15,806 bases of DNA, from IMG/VR virus record IMGVR_UViG_643348547_000009; one strand, given 5' to 3'. The translations under genes and the position numbers were made by a program. This document shows, one piece after another, positions 1 to 15,806 of this stretch; within the stretch, counting starts at the first letter, position 1, and each line of letters begins with the position of its first letter. Under the pieces are notes generated by a model. The model was not told the origin of the DNA, searched no databases, and saw nothing but the letters and a program-made list of their open reading frames with translations. This DNA is from a virus (Duplodnaviria; Heunggongvirae; Uroviricota; Caudoviricetes).

Positions 1-1461
1 ATGAAAAAATTACTGCGTCTTTTTTTCCCGCTCTCGCTGCGGGTACGTTTTCTGTTGGCAACGGCAGCGGTAGTACTGGTGCTTTCGCTTGCCTACGGAA
101 TGGTCGCGCTGATCGGTTATAGCGTCAGTTTCGATAAAACTACGTTTCGGCTGTTACGTGGCGAGAGCAATCTGTTCTATACCCTTGCGAAGTGGGAAAA
201 CAATAAGTTGCATGTCGAGTTACCCGAAAATATCGACAAGCAAAGCCCCACCATGACGCTAATTTATGATGAGAACGGGCAGCTTTTATGGGCGCAACGT
301 GACGTGCCCTGGCTGATGAAGATGATCCAGCCTGACTGGCTGAAATCGAATGGTTTTCATGAAATTGAAGCGGATGTTAACGATACCAGCCTCTTGCTGA
401 GTGGAGATCATTCGATACAGCAACAGTTGCAGGAAGTGCGGGAAGATGATGACGACGCGGAGATGACCCACTCGGTAGCGGTAAACGTCTACCCGGCAAC
501 ATCGCGGATGCCAAAGTTAACCATTGTGGTGGTGGATACCATTCCGGTGGAGCTAAAAAGTTCCTATATGGTCTGGAGCTGGTTTATCTATGTGCTCTCA
601 GCCAATCTGCTGTTAGTGATCCCGCTGCTGTGGGTCGCCGCCTGGTGGAGTTTACGCCCCATCGAAGCCCTGGCAAAAGAAGTCCGCGAACTGGAAGAAC
701 ATAACCGCGAATTGCTCAATCCTGCCACAACGCGAGAACTGACCAGTCTGGTACGAAACCTGAACCGACTGTTAAAAAGTGAACGCGAACGTTACGACAA
801 ATATCGTACGACGCTCACCGACCTGACCCATAGTCTGAAAACGCCACTGGCGGTGCTGCAAAGTACGCTGCGTTCTCTGCGTAGTGAGAAGATGAGCGTC
901 AGTGATGCTGAGCCGGTAATGCTGGAGCAAATCAGCCGCATTTCACAGCAAATTGGCTACTACCTGCATCGTGCCAGTATGCGCGGCGGGACATTGCTTA
1001 GCCGCGAGCTGCATCCGGTCGCCCCACTGTTGGACAATCTCACCTCGGCGCTGAACAAAGTGTATCAACGCAAAGGGGTCAATATCTCTCTCGATATTTC
1101 GCCAGAGATCAGCTTTGTTGGTGAGCAGAACGATTTTGTCGAGGTGATGGGCAATGTGCTGGATAATGCCTGTAAATATTGCCTCGAGTTTGTCGAAATT
1201 TCTGCAAGGCAAACCGACGAGCATCTCTATATTGTGGTCGAGGATGATGGCCCCGGTATTCCATTAAGCAAGCGAGAGGTCATTTTCGACCGTGGTCAAC
1301 GGGTTGATACTTTACGCCCTGGGCAAGGTGTGGGGCTGGCGGTAGCCCGCGAAATCACCGAGCAATATGAGGGTAAAATCGTCGCCGGAGAGAGCATGCT
1401 GGGCGGTGCGCGGATGGAGGTGATTTTTGGTCGCCAGCATTCTGCGCCGAAAGATGAATAA
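1..1461 (+). CDS. phoQ: Sensor histidine kinase PhoQ of the PhoP/PhoQ two-component system, complete 486 aa
   Basis: ATG at 1, TAA at 1459-1461. Two hydrophobic TM segments flank a periplasmic domain with the acidic cluster EDDDDAEM; H-box [11 protein letters not shown]; ATP-binding G-boxes DDGPGI and GQGVGLAV. Sequence matches E. coli PhoQ as I remember it. Confidence 0.97.
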
Positions 1462-4289: not shown

Positions 4290-4340
4290 GCTTATTTTTC
4301 GTCAGATTATTTTTCAAAAAATTCCCGTGCATAAAAATTT

Positions 4341-4400
4341 GGGGAGGCGGTCGGTGCCCGGCGGGGTCGGGTTTGTCCTGAAAACGCCCCCCACCCCGTC
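4341..4400. other. Candidate cos / packaging recognition site in the HNH-TerS intergenic region
   Basis: GC-rich tract ggggaggcggtcggtgcccggcggggtcgggtttgtcctgaaaacgccccccaccccgtc, with a G-rich left end and a C-rich right end in inverted symmetry, lying between HNH and TerS where HNH-dependent cos sites usually sit. The first 10 nt (GGGGAGGCGG) resemble the start of the P2-type cohesive end GGCGAGGCGG, which I recall from memory. Confidence 0.35.
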
Positions 4401-4577
4401 ATACAGCCTCATCAGCGATTGCGGAAACATTCCATAACCTCGCGGTCACGGTCGGTTAATCGCTTCGCTGTGATGCGTTCTGCGCGTCCTGACGCTTTAT
4501 CTTTATGCCCTGTTTCCTGTGTCTTCCATGCGTCACGCTGCCTTATAAGTCCACGGATAAGGCGGTTTTGTTCCCGC

Positions 4578-7472: not shown

Positions 7473-8645
7473 TTAACCGCCGTTTTTCATCTCGAGGACT
7501 TTTATCGCGCGGGAGTCAACAACCCCGCCGCCGATGTATTTGTCCGTGTGTACCTTGTAGAAACCCGGCTCTGTAATGTTGTCCGGTCGGGTACGAATAC
7601 CCGTTTCATGGTCAACGATGAAATAACCGCGCTTAAAGTCACCGACAGCCAGCGGCGTTTTGCCTTTGCCGATGTCCGGCATACTTTCCAGGTAATAAAC
7701 AGGACGGCCCAGCAATGTGTCAGGTGCGCCCTCTTTGAGGCTGTCACGCCATACGTAATCACCGCTCTGGTTTTTCAGCTTCTGCAATGCTGCCGCTGTG
7801 CTCGAGTTCATCACCCATACGGCGTTCTTACGGTATTTCGCTTTCAGCTTGTAGAGGATGTCGATCAGTTCGTCCGCTGTAATGGCGGCTTCGGCTGCTG
7901 CTACCATTTTTTCAATGGTGCCAAAGGCGCGGGTTTTGTCGTTGGTTAGATCTCGGTTGTAACTCAGGAAACCTTTCGGCTTGCCAGTACCATTACCATT
8001 TACAAAATCATCTTCTTCGGTCGTGGCGAACGTATCGGCGATTTCAGACGATAACCAGCCCAGTACGTCCACCTCTGAAAAATCCAGAATTTCCTGTGTG
8101 GTTTTCGGGTAGGCATAGATCGGGTTAAGTTTGATGCTTACGCGCTCAACTTTCGGGGTGTTGGTTTCGTTACGCTTGCTGCCCTCGGTTCCATAATTTA
8201 CAGCCGCGCCACCTGTGGAAACCAGTTTCTGATATTCGTTTGATTTCGCCGTTTTCACGGTCGCAATCATTCGCATGACGCTTTCATCACTCAGTAACCG
8301 CATGACCTCGCGATCAAGCTCAGGGATAACGGTATAGCCACCGTCCTTGCCGCTGTTGCTAGTGGTGGATAATGAGCGAACGTCACCCGTTACGATGTAA
8401 TTGCGAAGTTCTGCGGGGTCAGTGGTCTGGCTGGCTTTACCTGGCTTGCTGCGCTCTTCGTCTGCAATGGCTTCAAGGCGGGAAATGTCTTTATCGAGGG
8501 ATTCAGCTTTAGCGCGTAATTCGTCAAATTTTGCGCCCTCAGCATCGTTAAGACTGCGGTTTTCTTTTTCCGCGTTCTCCAGCATGTCGCGCATCTGATT
8601 TTTAATGGCGGTTTTCTGCTGGCGTAATTCGATTATTCTCGGCAT
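7473..8645 (-). CDS. Major capsid protein, HK97 fold (390 aa)
   Basis: N-terminal coiled-coil scaffold-like delta domain (ELRQQKTAIKNQMRDMLENAEKE...), about 390 aa, adjacent to the prohead protease; ATG at 8645. Confidence 0.92.
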   Translation of the reverse strand: MPRIIELRQQKTAIKNQMRDMLENAEKENRSLNDAEGAKFDELRAKAESLDKDISRLEAIADEERSKPGKASQTTDPAELRNYIVTGDVRSLSTTSNSGKDGGYTVIPELDREVMRLLSDESVMRMIATVKTAKSNEYQKLVSTGGAAVNYGTEGSKRNETNTPKVERVSIKLNPIYAYPKTTQEILDFSEVDVLGWLSSEIADTFATTEEDDFVNGNGTGKPKGFLSYNRDLTNDKTRAFGTIEKMVAAAEAAITADELIDILYKLKAKYRKNAVWVMNSSTAAALQKLKNQSGDYVWRDSLKEGAPDTLLGRPVYYLESMPDIGKGKTPLAVGDFKRGYFIVDHETGIRTRPDNITEPGFYKVHTDKYIGGGVVDSRAIKVLEMKNGG

Positions 8646-8682
8646 AAAAAAAGTCCTGGGGTTAAGTAAGGAACTCCAGGAC
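8646..8682 (-). promoter_or_regulatory. Terminator-like hairpin plus T7 tract directly abutting the capsid start codon
   Basis: Minus strand reads GTCCTGG-(16 nt loop)-CCAGGAC-TTTTTTT-ATG. The only Shine-Dalgarno candidate (AGGA) is inside the 3' arm of the stem. Confidence 0.4.
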
Positions 8683-8859
8683 GCGGCAAAAACTCAACCG
8701 TTTTTCATAAGGAAATCAGCAATCGCACCGATCGTTTTCCCGCCTGGTAATGAATATTGGCGAGAACATTAACAGGCGGAAAAGTGGCCCCAGCGTCCTG
8801 GCACCACGGGCGAGAATAATCATGATTCAGTTCGGGTAAAATATGCCGATCCGGTCAGC

Positions 8860-8885
8860 GAACAACGTGGAACAACCACGAACAA
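8860..8885. repeat. Three GAACAA direct repeats at exact 10 bp spacing in the packaging-operon upstream region
   Basis: Read directly: cGAACAAcgtgGAACAAccacGAACAAataa; shares a 15-mer with 1586-1600. Confidence 0.6.
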
Positions 8886-8904
8886 ATAATTTACAAAACA
8901 TGAC

Positions 8905-8925
8905 AAAAAGCCGGATTGCTCCGGC
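8905..8925 (-). terminator. Candidate rho-independent terminator after the perC-like gene
   Basis: On the minus strand, GCCGGA-gcaa-TCCGGC (6 bp stem, tetraloop) followed by TTTTTGTCATGTTTTG, starting 7 nt after the perC-like stop. Confidence 0.5.
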
Positions 8926-8932
8926 TGTGTGA

Positions 8933-9205
8933 TTATCTGTCCTGGTAATTTCGCCATATTTCATCACCAGCACCATCCATACCCATTTCGGCATAAGTGC
9001 GATCGACCGCCTTTTTCAGGTCTCCGTAATTATCCGGCGGCTCCGGTGGCCTCTGTGCCTTCCTGGAACATTCCAGCCGTCGCATCGTGATGTGATGCCG
9101 TTCCTTGTCTGTCTCCACCAGTTGCATGACTTCACCCCATCGCGCCGACGCTCTCCGGTAAAAGCCTTTCGCCTCCAGTTCTTCCGCTATGCGGTCATGT
9201 ACCAT
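8933..9205 (-). CDS. PerC-family transcriptional regulator-like protein (90 aa)
   Basis: N-terminal pattern MVHDRIAEELEAKGFYRRASARW matches my recollection of PerC-family proteins; strong Shine-Dalgarno (GAGGGGGG); last gene before the head module. Confidence 0.55.
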   Translation of the reverse strand: MVHDRIAEELEAKGFYRRASARWGEVMQLVETDKERHHITMRRLECSRKAQRPPEPPDNYGDLKKAVDRTYAEMGMDGAGDEIWRNYQDR

Positions 9206-9214
9206 CGCCCCCCC

Positions 9215-9625
9215 TCAGAACGGAATATCATCACCGTAAGGGTCATCGCCTCCCGCTGGTGGCTGATTACCCTGTGTGCCTGTGGTCTTGCGTCGGCTCC
9301 CACCAGGTCGCGCCGTTCTGGCACTGATTACGCTGTCTGCAATAACCTGCCAGCCCTGCCGCGTTTCGCCGTTCTGGCCTGTCCACTGGCTTACCTGCAT
9401 GTTACCCGCCACGCTCACCAGCTCGCCTTTGTGGTGTTTTGCCAGTGCGTCGGCCTGTCTGCCAAACGCCAGGACGGATAACCACATCGTCGCCTGTCCG
9501 TCATCTGCCTGATTGCACGGCAGGGGGACCGCCATGCTTGCCATAGCCATTTGTGTGCCCTTGCTGGTGGTCTTTAACTGCGGGTCAGCCACCAGCCGCC
9601 CGTAAGCGGCTATCTGTGCTGTCAT
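9215..9625 (-). CDS. ssb: Single-stranded DNA-binding protein (136 aa)
   Basis: OB-fold-like N-terminal region alignable with E. coli SSB, a Gly/Pro/Gln-rich linker, and the acidic C-terminal tip DDIPF. Confidence 0.8.
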   Translation of the reverse strand: MTAQIAAYGRLVADPQLKTTSKGTQMAMASMAVPLPCNQADDGQATMWLSVLAFGRQADALAKHHKGELVSVAGNMQVSQWTGQNGETRQGWQVIADSVISARTARPGGSRRKTTGTQGNQPPAGGDDPYGDDIPF

Positions 9626-9879
9626 GATTCCACCTCTCCGGTTTTAACGTTGATGGTTGTTACCTGTTCCGCTTCGGCAATCTCCCGTTCCGTCAGCGTG
9701 GCAAAGTTTGCCGCCGCCGTGGTCATGAATGCGCTTATCAGGTCGGGATGTGCTTTCGCGTATCCTTCCCCCGTGTTGCGGTCGATGATTTTTATCGCCA
9801 CTCTCAGCCAGTGCTCTGTAAGGTCAATGGCGCGGTTATGCTGCTTCTTCTGATTATTAAGTTTTCCTGATGTGCGCAT
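9622..9879 (-). CDS. Hypothetical 85 aa protein between the ori and ssb
   Basis: ATG at 9879 with a GAGGGGG Shine-Dalgarno upstream; stop overlaps the ssb start (ATGA). Function unknown. Confidence 0.5.
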   Translation of the reverse strand: MRTSGKLNNQKKQHNRAIDLTEHWLRVAIKIIDRNTGEGYAKAHPDLISAFMTTAAANFATLTEREIAEAEQVTTINVKTGEVES

Positions 9880-9928
9880 TTTTATTTTTACCCCCTCGTT
9901 TAAAAAGTTTTGAGTTGTGCCTCCCCTT

Positions 9929-10154
9929 GTCTACCTTATCTACCTTACTGGCTCTCATGCCAGTAATGGCGCGGCTTTCAGCGGGGTAGAGTGCTTTTAT
10001 CCACTATCTACCCCGTATCTACCTCCCTGTCTGATTCAGGTAAAATCAGGTAGAGAGGGTAGATAGTAGGTAGACAGTGAAAAAAGGCTGTCTACCTAAG
10101 TTAATATACTGAATTAAATGTATTTTTCTTTACTCAGGTAGACAGGGTAGACAG
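9929..10154. repeat. Candidate replication origin: about 11 iterons with core GGTAGA / TCTACC in both orientations, plus an AT-rich stretch
   Basis: TCTACC at 9931, 9940, 10007, 10018 and 10091; GGTAGA at 9985, 10049, 10058, 10069, 10138 and 10147. AT-rich segment at about 10100-10130. Located immediately 3' of the primase gene. Confidence 0.65.
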
Positions 10155-10167
10155 CCATTGCAAAAAA

Positions 10168-11916
10168 TTATAAAAACGCGTCGCAATCGTCTGTTGTTAT
10201 TGCGTTAGTCTGCGTTACTCCCTTAACTTTCCGCGTAATATATTCATGTCCGTAAACTTTCGCGGCTGGCTTCATAGCCTTGCCAAAGTCATTTACGTTT
10301 AGCGGTTTGCTCCTGCCTGCGTATGCCATAAACGCCAGATAGACGCGGTAAAGGCTGTTTCTGGTCGTGTACTTCACTGAATCGCCACCGCCACCCATCA
10401 TCAGGCCGCGCGCTTCCTCCAGAAAATTCAGGAACTGGCAAAACTCAATAACCGGATCCGTCTGTTGCTTTATTGCCAGTGCTTCATCACCGTCACGCTG
10501 TTCCAGTAGTAAAGCCCGTGCCTTCTCAGGGTCGGTAAAGTTCGCCAGCAAGCGGCGGATAATGACAGGGATTTCAGCCGCGATCTTTTCCGGTAGCTCC
10601 CTGTCTTTTTCTGCCTCGCTTACGATATTGTCGAAGCGGAAAATAACCCGACGACGTGACACGCCTCCGGCCCGTTCGGTGAATATCATCGGGTTGTTAT
10701 TGGTCGCCAGCACCACCGCCCTGATTACCGTAGTGAAACGCTTTTCATATTTCGGGTTGATTTCCACGGGGTCGCCGCCCGTGATTTTCTTGATGCCCGT
10801 GCCTTCGCCTGTATATTTCGGCTGGTCTGCCAGGACGATAAGACGACTCCCGACAACCTGCGCACGCCCACCAGCATCATCAAGCGATGTCATTTCCGCG
10901 CTTACCGTGTTTTGTTTCCCCGCTAAAAGGCTGGCGATGTGGGTGAATGTACTTTTGCCGCTCCCGCCGTCTCCGGTGGCCTCAATAAACATCTGCCAGT
11001 CGTACCGGTTCGCCATAATCATGTACAGCGCGGCACATATACGCATCATCTTGCGCGAGTCTTTTCCGGCTGCGTGCTCAAGCCATTTATGAAAGTTTGG
11101 CGCGTTATCGCGGATGTTCTCCCCTGGTGCTGGTGGCGTGTACTCAATGCCGTTGTTCGTGGTGATCCAGTTCTCCGGCGTGTGCGGGGAAAATTCCCCC
11201 GTTTTCAGGTCAAGCGCACCATTGGCGAACGGCAGCAAATCGCCGGACGGCTCGCCCATTGGTTCGGCAATAACTTTTAACGCTTCCACGGCGTTATTGA
11301 TTACGCGCTTGCTGAAAGTGGCCCTGTGCTCTGAATAGATCGCCACCATTTCGCGGCTAAGTTCCATTGTGCTGACCGGACACCATACCCCGCCGCGCCA
11401 TACGTGAACGATTTCACTTTCCGGATGCACACAAACGCCATCAAATCGACCAGCAAGCATCTGTGCGCGCTCACTGTCTGCCATTTGTGCCAGTTGCGTA
11501 TTTTTCTGCTCCGGCATGGTAAGCCCTGCGGCAATATTTTCACGCTCAGCATTCAGATAGCGCCGCCAGTTTTCACACTTCTGGACGTGCATTCCTTCGG
11601 GGTAAAAATTTGCGTCCTGAATATCTGCCGCCGCCAGCTTCTGACCAATCTTTTTGGTCTCCACCAAATCCAGTTCTCCGGCCTGGTACAGCCTTACGCG
11701 TTTTTTTCCATCCGGAACAATTTTCAGTGCATCAAGTTCGGCAAGCTGATTTGGCCCAAGCCACACAGGCGGCACATTATCGCCGGATGCGGGGCCATCC
11801 TGCTCCTGCCATTGTTTCGCGTGCGACCAGGCATCACTACCCGCGAAAATAATTACCTCTGTGTCTTTGTGTTTTATTCCGCGTGGCTGTTTTTTTACGT
11901 TCGGTGCCAGTTTCAT
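10168..11916 (-). CDS. Phage/plasmid primase-helicase, P4 family (582 aa)
   Basis: Walker A motif GDGGSGKST in the C-terminal NTPase domain and a primase-like N-terminal half; ATG at 11916 with an AGGGG Shine-Dalgarno; followed by the iteron region. Confidence 0.88.
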   Translation of the reverse strand: MKLAPNVKKQPRGIKHKDTEVIIFAGSDAWSHAKQWQEQDGPASGDNVPPVWLGPNQLAELDALKIVPDGKKRVRLYQAGELDLVETKKIGQKLAAADIQDANFYPEGMHVQKCENWRRYLNAERENIAAGLTMPEQKNTQLAQMADSERAQMLAGRFDGVCVHPESEIVHVWRGGVWCPVSTMELSREMVAIYSEHRATFSKRVINNAVEALKVIAEPMGEPSGDLLPFANGALDLKTGEFSPHTPENWITTNNGIEYTPPAPGENIRDNAPNFHKWLEHAAGKDSRKMMRICAALYMIMANRYDWQMFIEATGDGGSGKSTFTHIASLLAGKQNTVSAEMTSLDDAGGRAQVVGSRLIVLADQPKYTGEGTGIKKITGGDPVEINPKYEKRFTTVIRAVVLATNNNPMIFTERAGGVSRRRVIFRFDNIVSEAEKDRELPEKIAAEIPVIIRRLLANFTDPEKARALLLEQRDGDEALAIKQQTDPVIEFCQFLNFLEEARGLMMGGGGDSVKYTTRNSLYRVYLAFMAYAGRSKPLNVNDFGKAMKPAAKVYGHEYITRKVKGVTQTNAITTDDCDAFL

Positions 11917-12212
11917 TTTTTACCCCTGAATACGTTAAGCATCTTTTTTATTTCCTGAATATTGGCGCGTGCTTTCTCCCTGCTGGTGGGCACGTTACGC
12001 GGTACGGCCTGCACCAGAGAAAAATCACGATCGAACTGATAAACAGGCATCACGCAATCATATTCGTAGCCTTCACGACGGTAGGTTACGCGCCGTTCCT
12101 CCACGCCCTTAATCATTACCATGCCGCCATATTTATCGCGGTAAATATCGCCGTTCATAAATTCAGGACGAGCGGGGCCGCTGGCAGTAACGCCAGAATT
12201 TTTATTTTTCAT
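11913..12212 (-). CDS. Small hypothetical protein (99 aa), possibly DUF4222-like (tentative)
   Basis: ATG at 12212; stop overlaps the primase start (ATGA). The RDKYGGMVMIKGVEERRVTYRREGYEYDCVMP segment resembles small proteins I recall upstream of P4-family primases. Confidence 0.5.
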   Translation of the reverse strand: MKNKNSGVTASGPARPEFMNGDIYRDKYGGMVMIKGVEERRVTYRREGYEYDCVMPVYQFDRDFSLVQAVPRNVPTSREKARANIQEIKKMLNVFRGKK

Positions 12213-14396: not shown

Positions 14397-14576
14397 GCTA
14401 TTTAAAGAGTGATTCGCTAGTGTATAAAAAACCAGTAACACATTAAAAATCAGCTACTTATAAATCCGTACACTTTTTCGCCTCTTGTTCGTAGTTGTTC
14501 CGCATTGTTGCTCATTGTTGCACGTTGTATCTGTTCGCATATCCAGTATGCGCATACTGAAAAAACACGAAAAAAA

Positions 14577-15806
14577 TTATTTTCTTCTGGCTACTGGTAG
14601 CGTGGTTACGTTTTCATGTGTTCCCGCCAGTATCCCTAACCGCTCCGTCCACATATCCAGCGCATTGCGTTTAGCATCCAGATAACGGGAATGATTATAA
14701 ACTCGCTGCATTCCTGGCATCTGGTGGCCTGTAAGCTGCTCCACGACGTGAGGATCCACGCCTAAATCGCTCAGCATCGTTGTAAAGGTGCGCCGGATGT
14801 CATGTAGTGACCAGTGAGGGTGATTTAGCCTCCTGTGCGCTAATCTGCCGTACTGCGACACGCTTGTTTCCTGTTTCACTTCCCCCAGCAATAAGCCCGT
14901 GTGCCTGTTCTGCTCCACCAGCTGCGTGACGAACGGCAGTATTGCTTCCGGTATGGGCCGGAATATTGCCACCTTCGTTTTGCTGTGTTCTTTCGGCACG
15001 GTCCAGAGCATTTCGGTAAAATCCCACTCGCTGATCTCCGATAACCTCAGTTCTACCGTCCGGCATCCGAACACAATCAGGAGGCGGATTAACGCGATGT
15101 AGTAGGGGGAGAATATTTTTTTGTCCAGTGCCTGCAATAATTCGCCCAGTTCTTTGGTGCTTAAGACACGCTCGCTTATATCCGGTTTTTTCCCAACGTC
15201 CGCCACACTCATATCATCAAGAACGTTGCTGATTGCATAGCGCCGCCTCCGGCAGAACTTAAGCGCCTGTTTGCACGTCTGTAGCAAGAATCCGGCAGTA
15301 ACAGGCGTTCGCTTTGCCACCTGGTCAAAACAGGCCAGCCAGTGCCGTAGCTCGCATTTATCCAGCGGCATAGCACCAATGTGCTGTATTACGTGATTAT
15401 TAAGGCGCTTTTTCAGGGCGGCATAATCCACGCGGTTTTCCTTTGCGTACGACTCAAGCCAGTAGGTGAGCGCATCGCCAACCGTTACCGGCTTTAACGC
15501 TTCCTGTACGGTGTAATTAAGCTCATGACGTGGATTTTTCCCCTCTGCCAGCCATGCGCGACACTGGGCGGCTTTTTCCCTGGCTGATTTCAGGCTCAGA
15601 TCAGGATAATTTCCCAGCTTAATGCGTTCCGGTGGTGCCCCCCTTCCCGTTCCGGCCCTGTAAGTGAAATACCAGGTTAAAAGGCCACTGGTTGAATGCC
15701 TGACGCTCAGGTTTCCACCGTCATTAAGAAAGGCTGTTTTTTGGGCGGGTGTGCCGTTGATTTTCCTCAGCTGTGTATCGCTCAGTTTGTTAAGTGCTCT
15801 GCTCAT
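14577..15806 (-). CDS. int: Site-specific tyrosine integrase, P4-type (409 aa)
   Basis: ATG is formed by the last three bases of the window. N-terminal arm-binding-like domain, and a C-terminal catalytic region (...HDIRRTFTT...YNHSRYLD) consistent with the tyrosine recombinase R/H/R/Y arrangement. Confidence 0.93.
   Translation of the reverse strand: MSRALNKLSDTQLRKINGTPAQKTAFLNDGGNLSVRHSTSGLLTWYFTYRAGTGRGAPPERIKLGNYPDLSLKSAREKAAQCRAWLAEGKNPRHELNYTVQEALKPVTVGDALTYWLESYAKENRVDYAALKKRLNNHVIQHIGAMPLDKCELRHWLACFDQVAKRTPVTAGFLLQTCKQALKFCRRRRYAISNVLDDMSVADVGKKPDISERVLSTKELGELLQALDKKIFSPYYIALIRLLIVFGCRTVELRLSEISEWDFTEMLWTVPKEHSKTKVAIFRPIPEAILPFVTQLVEQNRHTGLLLGEVKQETSVSQYGRLAHRRLNHPHWSLHDIRRTFTTMLSDLGVDPHVVEQLTGHQMPGMQRVYNHSRYLDAKRNALDMWTERLGILAGTHENVTTLPVARRK

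Follow-up and report, generated by a model that had tools for sequence, protein, structure and literature searches.

Group 1 Pch proteins, relatives of the virulence regulator PerC, activate LEE1 of the enterocyte effacement locus (LEE) by relieving silencing by H-NS, StpA, Hha, and YdgT (Fukui et al. 2016, PMC4764244), and Pch effects have been placed at nucleoprotein complexes on DNA, including complexes reconstructed in vitro (PMC4764244). Groups 2 and 3 (PchD and PchE) are dispensable for ler and espA expression, according to literature quoted in PMC6265319, and the group 3 protein PchE was likewise reported to be dispensable for adherence. Overexpression of PchE increases flhDC and fliC expression and motility and decreases csgD expression, curli, and adhesion to HEp-2 cells (PMC7369912, PMC6265319). 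The present analysis concerns a perC/pchE-type gene located at positions 8933..9205 on the minus strand of a 15,806-nucleotide stretch of DNA (IMG/VR record IMGVR_UViG_643348547_000009; the whole stretch is hereafter referred to as the window). An original prediction for this gene, made from the sequence alone, offered two roles, namely activation of the adjacent packaging operon or cross-talk with regulons of the host. The explanation that we favor overall, with moderate confidence, is that it is a PchE-type accessory cassette gene that acts in trans on host genes and is not a dedicated activator of the capsid operon.

The expression and the genomic setting of pchE have been described in O157:H7. 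In uninduced cells, the gene is transcribed on a polycistronic RNA spanning ECs1586, ECs1587 (ssb), and pchE (Andreozzi and Uhlich; PMC6265319, PMC7369912), the start of which was mapped ~10 nt upstream of ECs1586 by 5' rapid amplification of cDNA ends (PMC7369912). A pchE promoter fusion is active without induction, and the SOS inducer SMX-TM lowers its activity about threefold (PMC6265319, PMC7369912). The island that bears the gene, Sp7 of strain Sakai, is the same as CP-933C or O-island 51 (OI-51) of EDL933, which is in turn EcCIEDL933, the prototype of the capsid-forming phage-inducible chromosomal islands (cf-PICIs), and the site between roxA and phoQ is shared. PchE, a single-stranded DNA-binding protein (SSB), and structural genes have been listed among the contents of OI-51 (Flockhart et al. 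2012). The study of the prototype reported that cf-PICIs rely on the tails of helper phages and that mutation of alpA alone abolishes induction and transfer of EcCIEDL933 (preprint 10.1101/2022.09.08.507074); PerC goes unmentioned in that work (10.1101/2022.09.08.507074).

The window is a piece of the Escherichia coli chromosome, with 99.9% identity to strain CE10 (O7:K1) over positions 8600-9700, and is bounded by phoQ (1-1461, plus strand) and by the beginning of an integrase gene (14577-15806, minus strand). One element, all of it read on the minus strand, fills the interval between these genes. Its first part encodes a tyrosine integrase, a 62-aa AlpA-type excisionase/regulator, open reading frames (ORFs) resembling Icd, a DUF4222 protein, and a D5-type primase; an 85-aa protein, an SSB, and the PerC-like ORF occupy the middle; and the late part consists of genes for an HK97-type capsid protein, prohead protease, portal, head completion protein, connector, HNH protein, TerS, and TerL. 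Neither Pfam assignments nor the RefSeq annotation of the CE10 locus revealed tail or lysis genes in the element. This gene set is that of a cf-PICI as described for EcCIEDL933 (preprint 10.1101/2022.09.08.507074), combining int, alpA, and primase genes with a capsid-to-TerL set and no tail or lysis genes in ~15 kb at a dedicated phoQ-roxA site. The element is the CE10 counterpart of Sp7/CP-933C/OI-51/EcCIEDL933, lying between roxA and phoQ.

The gene in question starts with ATG and encodes 90 amino acids followed by a stop codon. The proposal that its product belongs to the PerC family was confirmed over the full length by a Pfam search, in which residues 1-89 matched positions 1-89 of the 90-position PF06069 (PerC) profile with a score of 146.6 bits (cut-off 22.6; E = 2.7e-43). 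The ORF also matched phrog_994 (E = 2.9e-46), and the same ORF in CE10 carries the RefSeq label "PerC family transcriptional regulator." Its closest described relative is ECs_1588 (PchE) of O157:H7 Sakai, a protein of the same length with 88% identity over 89 residues, and one of the database matches explicitly bears the name PchE; PerC of enteropathogenic E. coli (EPEC), encoded by pMAR2, is 41% identical and 63% similar over the full length. Orthology with PchE is indicated by identity together with synteny, the ECs1586 homologue, ssb, and pchE occurring in the roxA-phoQ island of both CE10 and Sakai. The gene encodes a PchE-type (group 3) PerC-family protein, and it is already known, having been annotated as pchE in the prototype cf-PICI type.

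The sequence and predicted structure of the protein are typical of its family, the members of which are small (about 80-130 aa) and all-helical. The family motif, GFYRRASARW in the window protein (residues 14-23), has the general form G[LFM][YW]RRA[AS]xRW, and 56 diverse members show no variation at R17 and A19 and hardly any at G14, R18, R22, and W23. An AlphaFold2 model computed from 56 sequences contains five helices with a mean predicted local distance difference test score of 83. No relative of solved structure was found by sequence, no significant structural neighbor was present in a viral fold library, and no DNA-binding domain or fold, including helix-turn-helix, was recognizable in the sequence or the model. 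The predicted fold favors a perturber of nucleoprotein complexes or a partner-binding protein over a sequence-specific activator, though weakly, since models of small helical proteins match a wide range of folds. Close relatives (76-100% identity) were collected from 80 IMG/VR loci, which were sorted according to what follows perC. The alleles are intact in 73 of the 80, with a ratio of nonsynonymous to synonymous substitution rates (dN/dS) of about 0.23, which points to purifying selection on the gene.

Within the island, perC closes an accessory cassette of three genes, encoding the 85-aa protein, SSB, and PerC, which is situated between the origin and the late module. The first gene (9622..9879, minus strand), encoding the ECs1586 homologue, matched phrog_1231 (E = 2.5e-48) and no Pfam family. 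The second, ssb (9215..9625, minus strand; PF00436, E = 1.3e-16; phrog_44), has perC as its direct neighbor at the majority of the 80 IMG/VR loci. As had been proposed, perC lies between ssb and the head module as the last gene before the packaging operon, which opens with the HK97-type major capsid gene (7473..8645, minus strand; PF05065, E = 2.7e-71), and it is followed by a terminator of its own. This intrinsic terminator of the hyp85-ssb-perC transcript (8904..8926, minus strand), identified by terminator scanning and folding, begins 7 nt past the perC stop codon and is formed by the hairpin AGCCGGA-GCAA-TCCGGCT (8926..8904), with a 7-bp G+C-rich stem and a 4-nt loop, followed by TTTTTG. 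Its folding energy of -13.2 kcal/mol (z = -4.0) was reached by none of 200 shuffled sequences, and the same hairpin is present after perC in Sakai and CFT073 and at almost every IMG/VR locus. On the other side of the cassette, downstream of the primase gene, is an iteron-rich intergenic region (9880..10167), a candidate origin that also holds the cassette promoter as mapped in O157:H7 (PMC7369912). It contains at least 14 copies of GGTAGAYA/TRTCTACC in both orientations and a 39-nt imperfect inverted repeat, has a G+C content of 41-42%, and is probably the replication origin of the island. The G+C content rises to 58-61% over ssb-perC (9000-9750), compared with 46-51% in the flanking capsid and spacer regions, and this deviation suggests that the cassette was gained separately from the rest of the island.

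Between perC and the capsid start codon at 8645 lies a spacer of 287 bp (8646-8932), in which the two features through which PerC was proposed to activate packaging exist as sequence: three copies of TTGTTC in exact 10-bp phase (8860..8885, minus strand; GAACAA on the plus strand), and a hairpin, GUCCUGGAG...CCCAGGAC followed by U7 (8681-8646), which abuts the capsid ATG and takes in its AGGA ribosome-binding site. A late activator that works through one or the other of these features, comparable to lambda Q or P4 Delta in standing at the end of the early genes, would suit the position of perC immediately upstream of the operon with a terminator in between, and E. coli cf-PICIs almost invariably carry the gene. 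The array is also suitably placed, ~45-75 bp upstream of a candidate -10 region, AATCATGATTAT, and the lack of a consensus sigma-70 promoter on the minus strand within 8400-10200 would suggest that the promoter depends on an activator. The distribution of perC and of the array makes such a role very improbable, as set out below.

The first line of evidence comes from E. coli itself. Among the 80 IMG/VR loci, perC precedes an HK97-type capsid gene in about 33, of which 27 have the triple array in its exact form, and an EcCICFT073-type module in about 42. The latter module has a 68-aa protein and then a lambda-E-like capsid homologue, and its upstream region is different and lacks the array. Allele classes of PerC at 95.5%, about 89%, and 77% identity were each found with both late modules, such that near-identical alleles (89-95% identity) precede two unrelated late modules, one of them without the array. 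The array does not change with the PerC allele, whether the identity of the latter is 100% or as low as 77%. The cassette is common to three E. coli PICI types, and perC travels with ssb and not with a particular late module. In complete E. coli genomes, this type of perC occurs in 792 and the capsid leader in 357. Furthermore, in Sakai pchE and the array are kept apart by a 74-aa ORF, ECs_1589, together with a duplicate of the terminator (L002 9046-9420), an insertion that the window lacks. Insertions of this type are found in about half of the IMG/VR loci, with both late modules and with terminator copies bracketing the ORF; ECs_1589 matched no Pfam family, and the insertion looks like a moron. 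As the insertion of ECs_1589 leaves the array beside the capsid gene, the array belongs to the capsid control region and not to the perC unit. The constitutive expression of pchE and its fall upon SOS induction also speak against a late activator, and mutation of alpA alone suffices to abolish induction of EcCIEDL933.

The second line of evidence comes from other genera. Use of the capsid protein as the query identified 80 loci (61-73% identity) among species representatives of Enterobacterales, Pasteurellaceae, and Orbaceae, which were examined with up to 8 kb of flanking sequence. A single PerC sequence used as the query against genome contigs gave no match. The capsid loci were therefore judged with narrow and broad PerC hidden Markov models, the broad one being built from the 56 diverse members and run with --max and E values up to 10. 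Both models, including the broad one run filter-free to E 10, found no PerC in 79 of the 80 loci, from genera other than E. coli, and the sole occurrence was a truncated gene in Shigella flexneri. Among these loci, the ECs1586 homologue and this ssb were likewise absent outside the E. coli/Shigella group, and a Pfam scan assigned no family to the ORFs in the equivalent slot of other genera.

Twenty of the PerC-less Enterobacterales elements nevertheless keep an E. coli-like architecture upstream of the capsid gene. It begins with an anchor, TTTGTAAATTATTTGT, which lies 204-252 nt before the ATG and is nearly invariant across genera (8860-8896 in the window, including the repeats), and continues with two or three direct repeats in 10-bp phase, the unit of which varies between TTGTTC, TGTTTACC, and TACTC(A/C). 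Next come a small hairpin that has a T-run, the box CATGTATATCT, and a leader of ~150 nt with covarying stems. In Pantoea (L012), TTGTTC-type repeats are present both before the capsid gene and beside alpA, and in Rosenbergiella (L018) a TTGTTC pair is present beside alpA; PerC is absent from both, which indicates that TTGTTC-type repeats function, or at least persist, without it. Regulator and supposed target are thus found apart in both directions, the architecture without PerC in 20 elements and PerC without the array in CFT073-type PICIs.

The protein itself offers little to support a late-activator role. Besides the model without a recognizable DNA-binding fold, no resemblance to Q-type or Ogr/Delta zinc-finger proteins was detected in sequence or fold, and 50,697 deposited phage records are practically devoid of PerC, with one 1.6-kb fragment as the sole match, which leaves no precedent for the family as a late regulator of phages. 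Taken as a whole, the sequence comparisons suggest that the factor binding the phased repeats is not PerC.

The other role in the original prediction, cross-talk with host regulons, is the one that fared well, as it matches the published overexpression effects of the 88%-identical orthologue PchE. According to the explanation favored here, the cassette would be transcribed from its own promoter in the resident, uninduced island, with expression dropping on SOS induction, as is known for the orthologue, and the dedicated intrinsic terminator would end the transcript. PerC would then act in trans on promoters of the host or of other horizontally acquired DNA, as a cargo of the lysogenic-conversion type. 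It would probably do so by disturbing H-NS/StpA/Hha nucleoprotein complexes, by analogy with its relative Pch, a mechanism that suits a small all-helical protein without a recognizable helix-turn-helix. It would not be a dedicated activator of the capsid and packaging operon, since the control region of that operon, comprising TTTGTAAATTATTTGT, the phased repeats, and the leader, is kept in relatives that lack PerC. A role for PerC in the island's own cycle is considered unlikely. The DUF4222 protein of the element (11913-12212, minus strand) is an orthologue of RgdR/ECs1581 with 83% identity. RgdR/ECs1581 is a published activator of LEE and type III secretion from the same island (Flockhart et al. 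2012). With this orthologue and the PchE-type gene, the element carries two regulators of a kind reported to act on host genes.

Several points weigh against this explanation. The cassette is always located at the boundary of the replication and late modules, where lambda keeps Q, a position compatible with a role in the island's cycle. The order ssb-perC-leader is contiguous in 352 of the 357 leader-bearing E. coli genomes, the cassette being nearly fixed in the cf-PICI lineage, and the linkage of SSB and PerC is kept at 36% identity, hinting at a function in the replication module. The host of the window is O7:K1-like and may lack targets present in O157. The phenotypes of PchE were mostly obtained by overexpression from plasmids, the deletion having a slight effect on Congo-red binding only, and H-NS anti-silencing was demonstrated for group 1 Pch and not for PchE.

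Some of these points are accommodated by the main rival explanation, in which PerC serves the island generally and not through the array, either as an anti-silencer in cis or in trans or as an auxiliary of ori-SSB replication, and would help classical as well as capsid-forming E. coli PICIs to be expressed or replicated after induction. The placement of hyp85-ssb-perC directly downstream of the iteron-rich origin, the sharing of the cassette by three E. coli PICI types, and the purifying selection on perC are in keeping with this idea, as are the H-NS anti-silencing mechanism of the family and the 36%-identical homologue, which is still found in a DUF4222-primase-ProQ-SSB-PerC block. However, the cf-PICIs of other genera are presumably functional without the cassette, SOS induction lowers expression of the gene and does not raise it, and the members of the family that reside in plasmids and prophages have no SSB gene close by. 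Moreover, the capsid control region, with 46-47% G+C, is not markedly AT-rich. On balance, a general service to the island is regarded as unlikely.

A related reading concerns the origin of the family. The ori-(ProQ)-SSB-PerC block persists at identities as low as 36%, and three E. coli PICI types have it where the replication and late modules meet. On these grounds the PerC family might have arisen as a component of satellite (PICI/P4-like) replication modules, with a task in the satellite cycle, for example to counter silencing of the island or to set the time of late expression; the part that PerC and Pch play in the virulence of EPEC and enterohemorrhagic E. coli would in that case be a later exaptation. 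We hold this to be quite unlikely. The family is small, accounting for 96 of 1.84 billion cluster representatives at 50% identity (E < 1e-3). Relatives of PerC were found in 91 plasmid records, and the settings in which they occur include F-like plasmids, beside finO and hha, the perABC locus of EPEC, a position after a lambdoid lysis cassette, and other satellites. In the Salmonella plasmid pLG26p2, the PerC gene is located between finO and hha (L175 2890-6045); a third E. coli PICI type has the order ssb-proQ-perC; and PerC is found beside ProQ/FinO-family genes at L084 7943-9210 and L086 5154-6273. The company of ProQ/FinO and hha may, suggestively, mark a neighborhood of nucleoid and RNA modulators on mobile elements.

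A further rival explanation does away with transcriptional control in the classical sense: PerC might use a tetratricopeptide repeat (TPR)-like helical hairpin to contact a protein of the helper phage or the host, for example to tune late or tail gene expression of the helper or to interfere with competitors. The dependence of cf-PICIs on helper tails and the absence of a match to any DNA-binding domain leave room for it. Matches to TPR-like hairpins are non-specific for small helical models, however; PADLOC reported no defense-system match for PerC, hyp85, SSB, or the neighbors tested; and the published effects of Pch occur at nucleoprotein complexes on DNA. This explanation is accordingly given little credence.

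With respect to control of the capsid operon, the region 8646-8932 has several features of its own. The capsid-operon leader (8646..8829, minus strand) is not part of the perC unit. At its upstream end is the 12-mer AATCATGATTAT (8829-8818 on the coding, minus strand), the first 10 bases of which form a perfect palindrome. The same 12-mer is common to the otherwise unrelated regions upstream of the HK97-type and CFT073-type modules, having been found at 46 loci (for example, L083 8784-8795), and it is a candidate -10 region or operator shared by both late promoters. The leader was aligned for covariation over the ~170 nt before the capsid ATG in 21 Enterobacterales elements (8646-8815 in the window; L003-L025, L082), and 14 of the 20 predicted pairs show double compensatory changes. 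The first stem, P1, has the form GTGGCACTCA-GACG-TGAGCCGCCAC elsewhere and is kept in E. coli by compensation as GTGGTGCCAG-GACG-CTGGGGCCAC. The other two stems are P2, long and variable, and P3, the hairpin abutting the ATG. In E. coli, P3 has U7 after it and contains the ribosome-binding site, so that it looks like a terminator or a translational gate. Rfam contains no family matching the leader, and matches nearby were confined to spurious microRNA hits to the origin palindrome.

Repeats of the TTGTTC type recur in the spacer between int and alpA, as a pair or triplet in 10-bp phase and in the opposite orientation (window 14485-14500, plus strand). Further copies were observed at L083 14946-14971, L084 15692-15717, about position 1163 of L012, and L018 2622-2637, and in total these repeats were found in three E. 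coli PICI types and in Pantoea and Rosenbergiella. Their distance upstream of alpA is ~290 nt in E. coli and 30-40 bp in Pantoea L012 and Rosenbergiella L018. Pseudomonas aeruginosa offers the model of AlpA as a Q-like antiterminator that reads a binding element of its own, and the array was considered as such an element; the homology was rejected because P. aeruginosa AlpA is larger and 21Q-like, with DNA contacts up to residue 142, whereas the PICI AlpA is a 62-aa protein of the excisionase type. Phased direct repeats are bound by P2 Cox and other regulators of the excisionase type, and on such general grounds AlpA is a candidate binder of the repeats considered here. The evidence from co-variation is mixed: the cf-PICIs L095 and L148 combine an identical capsid array with a second AlpA type and no TTGTTC pair near alpA, and the detection of AlpA by tblastn was patchy in other genera.

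At the far end of the late module, the HNH and TerS genes are separated by a non-coding gap of 288 bp (4290-4577). In HNH-dependent cos phages, the cos site is usually located between the HNH and TerS genes.

The useful outcome of this analysis is a negative one, in that the picture of a regulator standing in front of its operon is not backed by comparative genomics, and annotation pipelines and readers should therefore assign PerC no role in packaging. What drives the capsid operon, with its anchor, phased repeats, and covarying leader and no described regulator, is the more interesting neighboring problem. If PerC were nevertheless to act in the satellite cycle, a family of virulence regulators would be linked to satellite biology, and the near-fixation of the cassette in E. 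coli PICIs would be explained.

Among known systems, pchE of the Sakai/EDL933 island is the most similar, agreeing in its neighbors (the ECs1586 homologue, ssb, the terminator, and the capsid gene), the roxA-phoQ site, the array, and the leader. It differs in the presence of ECs_1589 with the duplicated terminator and in its O157:H7 host, the window being derived from a CE10-like O7:K1 strain. EPEC PerC (perABC, on pMAR2/pEAF) and the PchA, PchB, and PchC proteins of enterohemorrhagic E. coli share the Pfam family and the core motif. These proteins are activators of LEE1/ler, whereas the group 3 protein PchE is reported to be dispensable for ler and espA, and the context also differs, consisting of a satellite replication module here as opposed to the per operon or the ends of lambdoid prophages.

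The likeness to lambda Q and to P2 Ogr/P4 Delta is limited to position, as the last gene before a late operon with terminators around it; there is no similarity of sequence or fold, and the comparative pattern speaks against a dedicated late activator. Proteins of the Ogr/Delta type possess a four-cysteine zinc site, which PerC cannot form because its sequence contains a single cysteine. Moron-type cassettes of prophages and PICIs, which the resident element expresses, resemble the present one in having their own promoter and terminator, a deviant G+C content, a lineage-restricted presence, and, beside it, a second unit (ECs_1589). They differ in that the cassette described here includes an SSB gene and adjoins the origin, and it does not therefore have the appearance of pure cargo.

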